IMG/VR virus record: IMGVR_UViG_2534681836_000019
Strand: one strand, 5' to 3'
Source of the DNA: a virus
Lineage: Duplodnaviria > Heunggongvirae > Uroviricota > Caudoviricetes
DNA length: 39,148 bases
Made by a program: the position numbers and the translations under genes. The notes under the pieces are model-generated. The model did not search any database. It had not been told where the DNA came from and saw only the letters and a list, made by a program, of their open reading frames with translations. Positions 3,182-32,060 of this stretch are shown here, in pieces; within the stretch, counting starts at the first letter, position 1; every line of letters begins with the position of its first letter.

Positions 3182-3575
3182 TCAACGAATACTGATGCCG
3201 GAAGCAGCTTTTTTGGTCACAATCACCGTACAGTCGGTGATATTGCCTGCCCCCTGATTGCCTTTCTGGAAAATCTTAAACTCCAGAGTGACGCTACCAC
3301 CACCACTAGGCATATCAATAACTGCACTGTAACTACCGGGAATGGCCCCTTTAGTTTCTCTGGATGCGATTAATACGCCGTTTTTGCGAACTTCAAAACC
3401 ATAACCCGTGTATCGCGTGCCTCCTGGGTTATTTCCGCTCCCCGGATCGTCATACGCTATACCGTTAAAAATAATGGGCGGAATAATAATCTGGCGGTCA
3501 AAGTTATGATCATCGCTGATGGTGACTGTAACCGTACCGTCTGGTGTTTCCGTGTTACCCCACGTACCGACTTTT
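3182..3575 (-). pseudogene. J: C-terminal (receptor-binding) portion of tail tip protein J, in a different frame from the main J ORF
   Basis: Manual translation of the alternate frame gives [23 protein letters not shown]...TVIVTKKAASGISIR*, which aligns with the lambda J C-terminus as I recall it; the frame break is at the T5 run at 3572-3576. Confidence 0.7.
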
Positions 3576-6500
3576 TCGGGAAGGCTTTTGATACAGCTTT
3601 AACGAAATCCCCTCTGACCTGGGTCGCCTCCAGCATGCCCTTAATCGTACAGTTCTGGTTAATCGTGACATTGTTGAGCGTTCCTGAGTTCGCATTCACA
3701 CTGCCACTGATATCCGCATTTTTAGCGGTCAGCTTTCCGTCTGATGTCAGGGAAAATACCGGAGGACTGCCACCACTGGTAATGGTGGGGGCCGTCAGGC
3801 GCTTCAGGAACACGTCGTTCATGAATATCTGATTGCCCTGCGCCACAAACATCGGCGTTTCATTCCCGTTTGCCGGGTCAATAAACGCGATACGGTTAGC
3901 GGCAACCAGAAACTGGCTCAGCTTGCCTTCCTCCGTGTCCTCCATGCTGAGGCCAATACCCGCGACATAATGTTTGCCGTCTTTGGTCTGCTCAATTTTG
4001 ACGCCCCACATGGCATTCCATTTATCGTTAGCGTCCTTCCACTCTTTCGAAAACTCATCCAGTCTGCTGGCGTTATCCTCCGTCAGATCAACTTTTTCCA
4101 GCAGCTCCTTGCCGAGATGGGATTCGGTTATCTTGCCTTTGAAAAAATCCAGGTAACCTTCCGCATCATCGCTCGCCCGACCGACGGCCTCCACGAATGC
4201 CGATTTGCCAACGGTGTTCACACTGCGGATATAAAAGTAATAATCATGGCCCGGTTTGATATTGATACTGGCGGCTATCCAGTACAGCCCCGTGCCAAGG
4301 TAGCGGGCTGTGGTTTCAACCTGCCTGATATCGGTAATCCGCGTTTCCGAGAACCAGAACTCAAACTGTACCGTCGGATCATAAACCGCAAGATGCGGCG
4401 TGGCAGTTATCTGAAAATAGCCCGGCGTCAGCTCAATCCGCGACGGCGCTGCCGGGGCGGCAATCCGGAACGATACCGACGCCGGATCGCCCTGCTGTCC
4501 CCGGGCATTTACTGCCCGGACCGTCAGCGTGTAACGCCCCAGCGCCAGCTGCCTGAAGCGGTAAGTGGTTTCCGTCGTCCGGGCCGTGCTGACCAGCCGC
4601 TCACTGCCGTCATCGGCGGCCACGGTCAGGCGAAGCATAAAGCTCACACCCTTCACTACCTTCGGCGTGTCCCAGCGCGCCAGCACCTGATACTCCCCAC
4701 TGTCTGCGGTGACTTCGGCGGTCAGGTGCTGCACCGCTGGCGGCGTGACACCATTCACCGTGCCGCTCTGGTCGCCGTCAAAGTGCGCTCCGTTATCCAC
4801 GATGGCCTCTTTTTCCGGCACATGCTGCACGGCAGTGATGGCATACATGCCGTCGTCGTTCTCACGGATACTCACACAGCGGAACAGGCGCTGGCGCAGC
4901 GTCGGCAGCTTCAGCCCCCACACGCTGTATCCGGCAACGCCGTCAGGAACACGGCTCACTTTCACCTTCACGCCGTCGGTGACGGACTGAACCTCCACGC
5001 TGACCGGATTGCCACTTCCGTCAACCAGGCTTATCAGCGTGGTACCGGAGGATGGCAGCGTGATTTCACGGTCGAGCGTCAGCGTCCGGGTCTGGCTGTT
5101 CACCGCCAGCACGCGCCCGCCGGTGCTGATACCGGCATAGTCATCATCACAGATTTCAATGACATCGCCCGGTACATGGCGAAGCCCTTCTGCGCCCACG
5201 CTGAAGTCCACGGTCTGCGTCTCCAGCAGCTCCGTTTTAATCAACCACAGCCCGGCGCGGTGTGCCTGCCCCCGACTGGTACAGCCAAAGGCATCCATCT
5301 TCGTGACGTTACGACCGTAACGGACAATGGCCTGCGTATCCTCCACAAGCTCTGTCGCCGTCTCCCAGCCGTTATTCGGGTCAATCCAGTTCACCTCAAC
5401 GGCATTATGACGGTCCTTCAGGGCGCTGAAGCTGTAGCGGAACGGCGCGCCATCATCCGGCATCACCACATTACTGCGGTTATAGGTCCACACCTTATCC
5501 GATGGCCGGTCCTGCACGAACGTCAGCGTCTGCCCGTTCCATACCGGCATACAGCGCATCGCCGAGCAGAAATCACTGAGCACATCCCACGCCTTGCGCT
5601 GCGTGGTCAGGTACGCATTACAGGTGATACGCGGTTCCGTGCCACCAAAGCCATCCGGCACCGACTGGTCGCAATTCTGGCCGATGACATACAGCGCCCA
5701 TTTATCCACATCCGCCGCACCAAGACGTTTCCCCATGCCGTAGCGCGGATGGGTCAGCATATCCCACAGACACCAGGCCATGTTATTGCTGTATGCTGGC
5801 TTAAACGTTCCGTCCCAGATACCGCTGTATTGCCGAGTCTGCGGGTTATAGTTCGACGGCACCTGCAGAATACGCCCGCGCAGATGATAATTACGGCTCA
5901 CCTGCTGGCTGCCGAACTGCTCCGAATCCACCTGTACGCCGACCAGTGCCGTGTTCGGGTAGCACTGTTTCACATCGATGATTTCGGTGTATGACGACCA
6001 GAGCGTTTTGTTCTGCAGCTGGTCTGTGGTGCTGTCCGGCGTCATCCTGCGCATCCGGATATTGAACGGGCGCGGCGGCAGGTCACCCACCACCACCGAG
6101 GCCAGATACTGCGAGGTGGTTTTGCCTTTAATGGTGATGTCTTTTTCCGTCACCCAGCCACCATTACGCTGTATCTGAACCAGCAGGCGGACTTCCGACG
6201 GATTCCGGTCACCCTTTGAGGTGGTTTCCACCAGTGCCTGTACACCGAAGGTAAAGCGCAGACGGTCGATGTTTGCCGACGTAATGGTGCGGGTGATCGG
6301 CGTGTCATATTTCACTTCCGTACCCAGCACCGTCTCGGAGCCGGAGGATTCAAACCCCTCCGGCGGAGTCTGCTCCTGCTCACCTGCCCGGAACACCACC
6401 GTGACGCCGGAGATATTGGTATTCCCCTCACTGTCCAGCACCGGCGTACTGTTCAGCAGCACGCTTTTTAATCCATCCACCGGACCTTCAACCGGCCCTT

Positions 6501-6594
6501 CGCTGATGGCATCGATCACACTCAGCAACTGCGTGGACTTCAGGTTGTCCTTCGCTTCGCGCGGAGTATGCCCCTTACTGCTGCCTTTACCCAT
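3457..6594 (-). CDS. J: Tail tip / host specificity protein J (main reading frame; C-terminal domain is out of frame)
   Basis: 1045-aa ORF starting [49 protein letters not shown], typical lambda J; located between I and lom. Confidence 0.9.
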
Positions 6595-6654
6595 TCCTCA
6601 CGCTCCATAAACGACAAAACCGCCCGGAGGCGGTTTCACATAAAACGTTTTTCA

Positions 6655-7302
6655 TCAGCGACCAATCACCACAACCTGACCACCATCCCCTTCGTCTGCC
6701 GTGCTGATCTCCTGAGAGACCACCCGCGACCCCACGCGCATTTCACCGTACAGAACGGGCAGAACATTGCCCTGGGCAACCATGTTATCCAGTGAGGAGA
6801 AATAGGTGTTCTGTTTGCCGTTATCTGTACTTGCTGCCGTGGGCGTCCTGGCTTTCGGTGCCAGCATCTGCGCCACTCCGCCCAGGATCATACTGGCCCC
6901 TGCCGCATACATGCCCGATACAGCCGCGGCACCCAGCCAGCCCACAGGGTTCCACCATGCCACCGCAATCAGCGCCGACCCCAGCACCACCTGAAACACA
7001 CCGCCACTTTTAGCTCCCGCCAGACGCGGCACGATGTGGATCACGGCACCATTTGCCAGCGGCTCATTAAGACGGGCAGACAATTCGGTTTCACCTGCAT
7101 CACGCCCGGCAATGCGTACCTGGTACCAGCCGTCGCTCAGTTTCTGACGAAACGCCGGGATCTGCATGGCCAGCGCCCGGATGGCTTCGGACCCCGTTTT
7201 CACTCGAAGGTCGATGCGGCGGCCAAATCGTTGTAAATCCCCGTAAAGGCAGATGCGTGCCATGCCCGGTGACGCCAGAGGGAGTGTGTGCGTCGCTGCC
7301 AT
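6655..7302 (-). CDS. I: Tail assembly protein I
   Basis: 215-aa ORF MAATHTLPLASPGMARICLYGDLQRFGRR... ending QVVVIGR, recognised as lambda I; overlaps K as in lambda. Confidence 0.9.
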   Translation of the reverse strand: MAATHTLPLASPGMARICLYGDLQRFGRRIDLRVKTGSEAIRALAMQIPAFRQKLSDGWYQVRIAGRDAGETELSARLNEPLANGAVIHIVPRLAGAKSGGVFQVVLGSALIAVAWWNPVGWLGAAAVSGMYAAGASMILGGVAQMLAPKARTPTAASTDNGKQNTYFSSLDNMVAQGNVLPVLYGEMRVGSRVVSQEISTADEGDGGQVVVIGR

Positions 7303-31265: not shown

Positions 31266-31526
31266 GAAGGAAGTCAGAAAGTAGTCGTAAGAACGGTGAT
31301 CACTGTCCGCTTTGTGCCAGGAGCAGCCATTGCTAAGTCCATCCTGTATTGTGCAGGTCAGCTCGTTTTTAAAGAGTCCGGCCATCATCTTACTGGTACA
31401 GACACCATATACTTTGTGACGGTCAGGCTACATATGCACAACTCAACTTATTCATCTATTTTTTGCTTTAGCATGTCAGTGTTGCTTTCTCGTCGGCGGG
31501 TGAGCGGTGACCTGACCTGTCGATAA
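31221..31526 (+). CDS. Hypothetical ORF (101 aa) in the relB-flxA divergent intergenic region; may be non-coding
   Basis: ORF only; its ATG lies inside the rel operator; no RBS or motif support. Confidence 0.2.
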   Translation: MSLQVSHYNMLRASHEGSQKVVVRTVITVRFVPGAAIAKSILYCAGQLVFKESGHHLTGTDTIYFVTVRLHMHNSTYSSIFCFSMSVLLSRRRVSGDLTCR

Positions 31527-31680
31527 AGGAACGTAGCACGTTTTATGCAACACCCGCATGCGGCAGAAAATTATTGCCGAACGTTTACCCCTGTCAACAA
31601 GCTTTACTTTCTGAGGCGCGCCAGCCCGCGAGGAAAACAATCTGAACATCAAACAATTAATGACACAAGAAATACGATTA

Positions 31681-31707
31681 AAGATTTTTTTGTGCATGCC
31701 GATAGTG
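31681..31707 (+). promoter_or_regulatory. Sigma-28 (FliA)-type promoter for flxA
   Basis: TAAAGATT (31681-31688), 11-nt spacer, GCCGATAG (31700-31707), close to consensus TAAAGTTT-N11-GCCGATAA; about 20 nt upstream of the flxA start. Confidence 0.6.
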
Positions 31708-31728
31708 CTTTTTTAAAAGGAGAAATCT

Positions 31729-32060
31729 ATGTCTGTCACAATTCAGGGAAATACCTCAACCGTTATTTCAAACAACTCCGCCCCGGAAGGAACATCAGAA
31801 ATAGCCAAAATCACAAGACAAATTCAGGTGCTGACTGAAAAGCTTGGGAAAATCTCATCGGAAGAGGGGATGACGACACAGCAGAAAAAAGAATGGCTGC
31901 ATTGGTACAGAAGCAAATTGAAAGCCTCTGGGCTCAACTGGAGCAGTTGTTAAGGCAGCAGGCAGAGAAAAAGAATGAAGACGCGACAGTTCAGCCTGAT
32001 AAAAAAGAAGAGAAAAAAGACGATACAAATACCGCTGGCACCATTGATATTTACGTCTAA
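31729..32060 (+). pseudogene. flxA: flxA, reading frame interrupted by a 1-nt deficit in an A6 run (intact ORF is 31729-31953, 74 aa)
   Basis: Frame 1 MSVTIQGNTSTVISNN...TTQQKKE then shifts; the -1 frame continues MAALVQKQIESLWAQLEQLLRQQAEKKNEDATVQPDKKEEKKDDTNTAGTIDIYV* to 32060; one extra A at 31885-31890 restores a 110-aa product. Confidence 0.65.

Follow-up and report, generated by a model that had tools for sequence, protein, structure and literature searches.

Errors in homopolymer length are known from flow-based pyrosequencing, from semiconductor platforms and from the consensus sequences of unpolished long reads. True one-base lesions are also found in prophages of the type considered here. 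The A7 run of ynfN in E. coli K-12 MG1655 is real and the gene is annotated as frameshifted, whilst in related O26 prophages a frameshift in the major capsid protein gene is common to four independent assemblies.

The window analysed here is the whole of contig AIGM01000026.1 (39,148 nt; assembly GCA_000249935.2), part of a 2012 draft of the E. coli O26:H11 strain DEC9C, to which AIGM is assigned in Table 1 of PMC5592225. In it, IncI1 plasmid genes adjoin a lambdoid prophage of the Qin type. The initial annotation had described recurrent single-base frameshifts in otherwise conserved genes, reading them as homopolymer under-calling typical of unpolished long-read assemblies, with decay of a cryptic prophage as the alternative; the attribution to long reads is not supported here. 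The broken genes of the contig are very probably, for the most part, single-base consensus errors, chiefly under-called homopolymers, and the pattern that they form is mostly no real biological feature. Under-calling or a related error appears to account for J, gnsB and flxA, for two further sites in ynfN and for the private indels of a transposase remnant; it does not account for cspF or for the truncation of the transposase, both of which are inherited. On this reading these two lesions, the cspF break with its 3' truncation and the ISEsa1 transposase truncation, are the only real inherited decay in the contig.

Broken genes and their repair

The features concerned are the following.

3182–6594, minus strand: tail-tip gene J, with a full length of 1137 aa if one T is restored
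3572–3576: T5 homopolymer in J, T6 in all relatives; private one-base deletion
23194–23366, minus strand: gnsB, frameshifted, 43 aa versus 57
23304–23310: T7 homopolymer in gnsB, T8 in the closest relatives
23538–23766, minus strand: ynfN, destroyed through two single-base deletions close to its start, separated by 13 nt
23745–23751: A7 run in ynfN (A8 to A7), A8 in the closest relatives and A7 also in K-12 MG1655
23758–23763: T6 run in ynfN (T7 to T6), T7 in all relatives, K-12 included
27436–27647, plus strand: cspF pseudogene, lacking one base, at about 27513 (GATGG-CGT) and not in a run, and truncated at the 3' end
31729–32060, plus strand: flxA, frameshifted, 74 aa versus 110
31892–31893: AA in flxA, AAA in all relatives; private deletion
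32767–33816, minus strand: ISEsa1 (IS1202-like) transposase remnant, truncated in all relatives, with two private indels in the window
33160: inserted A (GGGT[A]CAG) in the transposase remnant; private
33802–33803: one T deleted (GAGTTCC to GAGTCC) at codon 5 of the transposase remnant; private
33979–34112: private differences, three within 133 nt, immediately beyond a repeat, namely substitutions at 33979 and 34080 and an inserted T at 34112

One base is missing from each of J, gnsB and flxA and two from ynfN. Together with the transposase pair and the insertion near trbA this gives about eight private one-base indels relative to the closest genomes, and they are in all likelihood consensus errors rather than bacterial mutations. 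The breaks flagged at the outset are all present, but the ynfN pair and the inserted T had been omitted. The description of the breaks as lying mostly in homopolymer runs is accurate for half of the private indels: four of the eight sites are in runs of at least 6, and the other four, in runs of 0–3 bases, are clustered at 31.9–34.1 kb. As had been claimed, the long structural genes are unbroken; all are among the 42 of 46 comparable CDS which are intact and of reference length. The tail-fibre gene is interrupted by the contig end.

The break in J is at the T5 run first proposed. The ORF in the window (3457–6594) ends after 1045 aa, without the C-terminal Ig_GpJ_C domain. With one T restored, the C-terminal residues are identical to those of DEC9B J (132/132). 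Among 1,276 matching complete-genome records the T5 allele is absent, and exact-protein look-up of the truncated J in a 153-billion-gene index returned this contig only. The J T5 run is probably a consensus error.

In flxA the frameshift is likewise real, but it had been placed in the A6 run at 31885–31890, which has the same length in the relatives; the base is lost from the adjacent AAA. The proposed comparison of homopolymer lengths with relatives yields longer runs in J and gnsB and no difference in this A6 run. Repaired FlxA is identical to its homologue at 110/110 residues. None of the 1,197 matching complete-genome records has the window allele, and the truncated protein, by exact look-up in the same index, is confined to this contig. 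The Lom allele of the window is on no other contig of that index, and exact look-ups of the Lom protein and of both truncated proteins, J and FlxA, found no second DEC9C assembly.

The transposase is frame-broken, as had been noted, and is annotated as incomplete with its C-terminus missing. It is a genuine truncated remnant, as in all relatives, whatever its private indels. The frame effects of the lost T at about 33803 and the inserted A at 33160 cancel, and the inserted A is in 0 of 792 complete-genome records. In the region 33979–34112 the closest plasmid among 1,900 matches has only 98.6% identity, a figure which corresponds to all three differences. The inserted T is upstream of trbA, and this cluster is probably a stretch of locally poor consensus.

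A repeat of 3.27 kb is present in DEC9B in two copies, one on the plasmid and one on the chromosome, which are identical; against either of them the window has 3 indels and no SNP. Diverged repeat copies collapsed into one were considered as a source of the flxA and transposase indels. This was rejected, since neither DEC9B copy differs from the other or, by any substitution, from the window. A wrong join at 30612 (hokD/relE) was rejected as well. The same junction occurs in O26 11368 and in a second DEC9B locus, and any switch from chromosome to plasmid must therefore fall within the 3.3-kb repeat.

The single base missing from cspF at about 27513 is, as first described, outside any long run, but it is not an artefact. 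The complete DEC9B genome, in which the gene is annotated as frameshifted, and an independent assembly (L015) have the identical allele, and the 3' end is truncated too. The frameshift is real, since the exact allele is common to 207 complete genomes (of 216 matching).

It may be asked whether the broken genes still yield full-length proteins through recoding, be it programmed ribosomal frameshifting or slippage of transcription on their A/T runs. Some transcriptional slippage is possible on A/T runs of 7 or more, and the tail chaperone G/GT is a genuine programmed frameshift in lambda-like phages; the G and T ORFs of the window (12023–12750) are intact. The flxA and transposase sites, however, are outside any slippery run, and each gene is one unbroken ORF in all relatives. 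Among the relatives compared, no conserved frameshift with a slippery motif was found at the flagged sites, and there is no conserved recoding signal because the relatives encode single uninterrupted ORFs at all of them. Recoding has next to no likelihood.

Indel-to-substitution balance and run length

The balance of changes separates the window from its relatives. Over about 35 kb it differs from the closest genomes by about 8 private one-base indels and just 1–3 substitutions. Relative to the complete DEC9B chromosome there are 1 SNP and 3 homopolymer deletions at 6208–30612 and 0 SNPs and 1 deletion at 2984–5112, and relative to pDEC9B-1 there are 2 SNPs and 4 indels at 30613–38858. Three independent assemblies (L015, L019 and L020) are identical to the window over 8.5, 5.9 and 4.7 kb, apart from 3 homopolymer deletions. 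Pairs of other assemblies, compared at this locus as controls, gave ratios of substitutions to indels of 24:1, 25:0 and 26:1. Indels to substitutions are thus 8:3 in the window versus 2:75 in the controls (Fisher p = 1e-7).

Run length matters as well. Shortened runs number two of four at length 8, one of nine at length 7, one of 48 at length 6 and none of 132 at length 5, whilst no run of at least 6 in the window is lengthened. Runs of at least 6 make up 1% of the bases yet hold four of the eight indels (binomial p = 6e-7), and this concentration is beyond chance.

These figures suggest that long homopolymers were systematically under-counted by the sequencing platform or at the consensus step of the 2012 project, an under-call being likelier the longer the run. 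Miscalls of a second kind, fewer in number, would lie in or just beyond the 3.3-kb sequence, which is multi-copy in the sister strain DEC9B. On this explanation the true DEC9C sequence most likely reads T6, T8, A8, T7 and AAA at the sites in J, gnsB, ynfN and flxA, with the genes intact. The four indels outside long runs count against a reading as artefact in that they call for a second error source, and long homopolymers are natural slippage hot spots as well.

The principal rival is real pseudogenisation, in which the Qin-type prophage of DEC9C is decaying and the private indels are mutations of the lineage or date from storage since 1952. Real decay does exist in this prophage, in cspF and the ISEsa1 remnant, related prophages have a true MCP frameshift, other genomes differ in the length of the gnsB and ynfN runs, and two sites are common to the DEC9D draft. 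It is nevertheless decidedly unlikely. It requires about 8 indels against 1–3 substitutions, where the controls have about 75 substitutions to 2 indels, and it requires two lesions just 13 nt apart. The alleles concerned are missing from hundreds to thousands of genomes, and a deletion-only signature is seen in unrelated strains of the accession series, chromosomal genes included. Lesions present in independent assemblies are those of cspF and the ISEsa1 truncation, not those of J, flxA, the ynfN T6 run or the transposase indels. The decay alternative holds for cspF and the ISEsa1 remnant only.

A history of mutator activity through deficient mismatch repair, or phase variation in which slipped-strand mispairing makes gnsB and ynfN switchable genes, would also make the probability of an indel climb with run length, and the same runs are polymorphic elsewhere (K-12 ynfN A7, and gnsB T7 in some 2% of complete genomes). 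Against this, runs of 5–8 nt are short for efficient phase variation, transitions should rise too in a mutator whereas there are almost no substitutions, and the insertions at 33160 and 34112, outside runs, fit slippage poorly. The pattern moreover follows the sequencing project and not phylogeny, and we regard such a history as highly improbable.

The gnsB and ynfN tracts and other drafts of the series

The break in gnsB was correctly assigned to its T7 run. Repaired GnsB is identical to GnsB of the WP_001019606 type (57/57), and the restored frames of J, gnsB and flxA all match their homologues perfectly; a mismatch had been named in the initial annotation as a refutation of its reading. Where loci agree with the window in all substituted bases, the run is T8. 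The T7 allele is nonetheless present in 41 of 2,139 complete-genome records (about 2%) and in 2,217 index blocks, many of them on short contigs. It is also found in the drafts AIGN, AIFV and AIHK, although the site there is a selected one, these loci having been retrieved by querying with truncated GnsB. The T7 of the window is probably an under-call, at a run which is also variable in other genomes.

In ynfN the start reads MKKS* in the window versus MKKIIVFFNSE... in the relatives, and with both bases restored the DNA is that of the intact DEC9B gene. The combined allele of the window at the two runs occurs in 0 of 1,572 matching complete-genome records. Separately, the A7 run is also present in the DEC9D draft, which has 0 SNPs relative to the complete DEC9B genome, and the T6 under-call recurs in the AIFV draft.

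These observations allow a further alternative, that gnsB and ynfN of Qin-type prophages have, in the long A/T runs at their 5' ends, genuine recurrent slippage hot spots which silence these genes in some lineages. The tracts are only 7–8 nt long; length variants of them are seen, as in gnsB T7 (about 2%) and K-12 ynfN A7, and part of this variation may be assembly error. We consider the idea unlikely. Were the runs true hot spots, the alleles common to DEC9C and DEC9D could be real there, whilst the indels of J, flxA and the transposase would stay artefacts. DEC9C and DEC9D are clonal sisters, and their common gnsB T7 and ynfN A7 could be inherited.

The reading as consensus error extends to other drafts of the accession series. 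The DEC9D draft (AIGN) differs from complete DEC9B by 0 SNPs and 2 homopolymer deletions. Relative to its nearest relative, AIFV has 9 SNPs and 7–8 one-base deletions in 17.5 kb; the deletions are in runs of 6–8, include the chromosomal flank (ydfK/ynaE) and are accompanied by 0 insertions. AIHK has 4 such homopolymer deletions and 0 insertions. A deletion-only homopolymer pattern is thus found in three other drafts, with unselected sites and chromosomal flank included; the membership of AIFV and AIHK in the DEC project is taken from the accession series. In PMC5592225, frameshifts in other DEC drafts were suspected to be sequencing or assembly errors. A Logan contig from SRR094966 carries the same RzpQ allele as the window and ends short of the variable runs.

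No new biology is implied. Analyses of pseudogenes, gene content or prophage decay which rely on this draft will overcount broken genes and, on present evidence, so will those on other drafts of the series; the truncation of J, for example, could be misread as loss of a receptor-binding domain. The ratio of indels to substitutions relative to near-identical genomes, combined with the sharing of lesions among independent assemblies, offers a test of artefact versus decay which needs no reads.

Comparison with known systems

The window indels resemble known homopolymer consensus errors in being single-base, deletion-biased, concentrated in A/T runs of at least 6 and likelier in longer runs. They are also private to the assembly, their pattern recurs in drafts of the same project, and a one-base repair is exact. 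Unlike plain homopolymer errors, half of them are in runs of 0–3 bases in or next to the multi-copy 3.3-kb repeat, which indicates a second cause, poor local consensus.

The broken genes also recall a lesion of related O26 prophages, in which a conserved phage gene, the ClpP/major-capsid fusion, is likewise frameshifted by one base, an inserted T. That lesion, however, is found in four independent assemblies, whilst the J, flxA and ynfN alleles of the window are found nowhere else.

Finally, the window has the same gene order as K-12 Qin and the O26 relatives and near-identical sequence (gnsB, ynfN, cspI, cspB, cspF, ydfT, ydfU, rem, hokD, relBE and flxA). Like K-12 Qin, whose ynfN is frameshifted at the same A run, it shows real decay, here in cspF and the ISEsa1 remnant. 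Unlike K-12 Qin, it keeps a full lambda-like set of structural genes identical to that of DEC9B, and most of its extra decay is very probably artefact.

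Organisation of the contig and its interrupted genes

Exact-protein look-up of the truncated J leads to a single record, AIGM01000026.1 of GCA_000249935.2, which like the window has 39,148 nt. PMC5592225 (Table 1) assigns AIGM to E. coli O26:H11 DEC9C (ST29, Switzerland 1952) as its draft genome. Four segments can be distinguished in the window:

1-30612, Qin-type lambdoid prophage, collinear with its counterpart in the complete sequence of sister strain DEC9B
30613-33939, relE, relB, ydfV, flxA and ydfW with an ISEsa1 transposase remnant
33940-38858, IncI1 plasmid genes trbA, trbB and trbC, matching the DEC9B plasmid pDEC9B-1
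38859-39148, an end of IS2 (first 290 nt of the element), directly after trbC

The prophage begins with tail fibre, lom and J and continues through the other structural genes to terminase, after which come gnsB, ynfN, cspI, the lysis genes, cspB, cspF, ydfT, ydfU, rem and hokD. It is bridged to the plasmid genes by the 3.3-kb relBE-flxA-ISEsa1 segment, whose copies on the DEC9B chromosome and on pDEC9B-1 are 100% identical. The junction (30613-38858) reflects either chimeric assembly across this repeat or a real co-integrate. PMC5592225 reports no large plasmid from the DEC9C data; nevertheless the window has IncI1 genes. The bridging segment is missing from the Qin-type prophage of DEC9B, where IS2 and a DUF4209 gene stand instead (42617-44565 of the homologous locus L001, versus 30613-33939 here), but persists both at another chromosomal position in DEC9B and on the plasmid of that strain. 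Where IS2 starts in the window, pDEC9B-1 has different sequence; either IS2 inserted here in this strain specifically, or the contig broke off at a repeat.

Single-base length changes in the window and their consequences
J: T5 at 3572-3576, T6 in relatives; 1045 aa versus 1137, Ig_GpJ_C domain lost
gnsB: T7 at 23304-23310, T8 in close relatives; 43 aa versus 57
ynfN: A8 to A7 at 23745 and T7 to T6 at 23758; gene destroyed by both
cspF: one base missing at about 27513
flxA: base missing from the AAA adjoining the A6 run; 74 aa versus 110
ISEsa1 transposase remnant: private +A at 33160, private -T at about 33803
Private +T at 34112

The initial annotation had named breaks in J, gnsB, cspF, flxA and the transposase, and all exist, although it placed that of flxA in the A6 run itself and overlooked both ynfN deletions and the insertion at 34112. 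It was right that the long structural genes are intact: all are among the 42 of 46 comparable CDS which are unbroken and of reference length. The comparison of restored frames with homologs, which it had proposed, gave complete identity once the missing base was replaced (132/132 C-terminal residues of J, 57/57 of GnsB and 110/110 of FlxA). The two transposase indels, +1 and -1, lie 643 nt apart and their frame effects cancel.

Indels against a background of near-identity

Against the DEC9B chromosome, 6208-30612 shows one substitution and three homopolymer deletions, and the J block 2984-5112 no substitutions and one deletion. The plasmid and chromosomal copies of the 3.27-kb relBE-flxA-ISEsa1 repeat are the same in DEC9B; the window agrees with them at every substituted position and differs by three indels. 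Over 8.5, 5.9 and 4.7 kb respectively, three independent assemblies (the homologous loci L015 and L019 and, from Logan, contig L020) have the sequence of the window, three homopolymer deletions apart. As a control, this locus was compared between pairs of other assemblies, which gave substitution to indel ratios of 24:1, 25:0 and 26:1; indels to substitutions stand at 8:3 in the window versus 2:75 in the controls (Fisher p = 1e-7).

At four sites the window allele is also private. Queries of 79-87 nt against 5,426 complete E. coli genomes recovered the J allele in none of 1,276 matching records, the flxA allele in none of 1,197, the transposase +A allele in none of 792 and the combined ynfN allele in none of 1,572. 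No second contig in the gene index carries the truncated J (by exact-protein look-up), the truncated FlxA or the Lom allele.

Shortening follows run length, affecting two of four runs of 8, one of nine of 7, one of 48 of 6 and none of 132 of 5, while no long run in the window is lengthened. The four of eight indels outside long runs (31892, 33160, 33803 and 34112) lie with private substitutions at 33979 and 34080 within 2.2 kb, in or just beyond the repeat, and all three sites in 33979-34112 differ even from the closest plasmid among 1,900 that match. This clustering suggests a locally poor consensus.

Substitutions relative to DEC9B are themselves localized: 91 of 92 fall at 12-6207, nearly all in blocks 912-2396, 2815-2983 and 5113-6207, corresponding to tail fibre, lom and the 5' part of J. 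The tail-fibre block agrees at all 64 variable sites with a paralogous prophage of the sister strain 7_33_46A, the Lom allele has no second occurrence in the whole gene index, and the J part is finely mosaic. These blocks either arose by recombination between prophages residing together or are the product of a consensus in which paralogs were collapsed.

Other drafts and inherited lesions

Three other drafts of this accession series were recovered with truncated GnsB as query; the gnsB site is thus selected and their remaining sites are unselected. The DEC9D draft (AIGN) differs from complete DEC9B by two homopolymer deletions and no substitutions. The two alleles that it has in common with DEC9C, its clonal sister, could be inherited. 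AIFV and AIHK appear from their accession series to belong to the DEC project. AIFV shows nine substitutions, seven one-base deletions and no insertions relative to its nearest relative; every deletion lies in a run of 6-8, and they extend into the chromosomal flank, where ydfK/ynaE is truncated. AIHK has four one-base homopolymer deletions and no insertions. Sequencing or assembly errors have already been suspected for frameshifts in other DEC drafts (PMC5592225).

Length change is also naturally frequent at long homopolymers. Of 2,139 complete-genome records, 41 from diverse strains have gnsB T7, as do 2,217 index blocks, many of these on short contigs; this reflects a natural slippage hot spot, a cross-platform error hot spot, or both. 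The ynfN run (window 23745-23751) is A8 in O26 strains and A7 in K-12 MG1655 (L023), where the gene is annotated as frameshifted, so that the 51-aa YnfN of K-12 may be what is left of a 76-aa protein.

Real decay, the alternative initially entertained, holds for cspF and for the transposase truncation, which are real and inherited. The cspF frameshift, first listed with the rest, recurs unchanged in complete DEC9B, whose annotation marks the gene as frameshifted, and in 207 of the 216 complete genomes with a match. Relative to O26 11368, window and DEC9B also have in common a deletion of ~259 nt at 27638, which takes the cspF 3' end and a small ynfS-like ORF. For the other lesions, the excess over substitutions, privacy, run-length dependence and recurrence of the pattern in the same batch of drafts favour miscalling: the private indels are very probably consensus errors, with J, gnsB, ynfN and flxA intact in the strain. 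Long reads, to which the initial annotation linked the pattern, are one possible source of such errors in this 2012 draft. On this reading the finding is an artefact of an old draft assembly, and its sole practical use is as a caution for analyses of pseudogenes or prophage decay drawing on these records.

Related O26 prophages (L005, L006, L008 and L010) provide a comparison. In these four independent assemblies, one a metagenome contig, a +T (CATAATGACC to CATAATTGACC, equivalent to window 16917) divides the ClpP/major-capsid fusion gene, unbroken in the window and DEC9B, into 124 and 555 aa, and is a real inherited frameshift of a sister lineage. True lesions such as this and that of cspF are common to independent assemblies, whereas the private lesions of the window are not.
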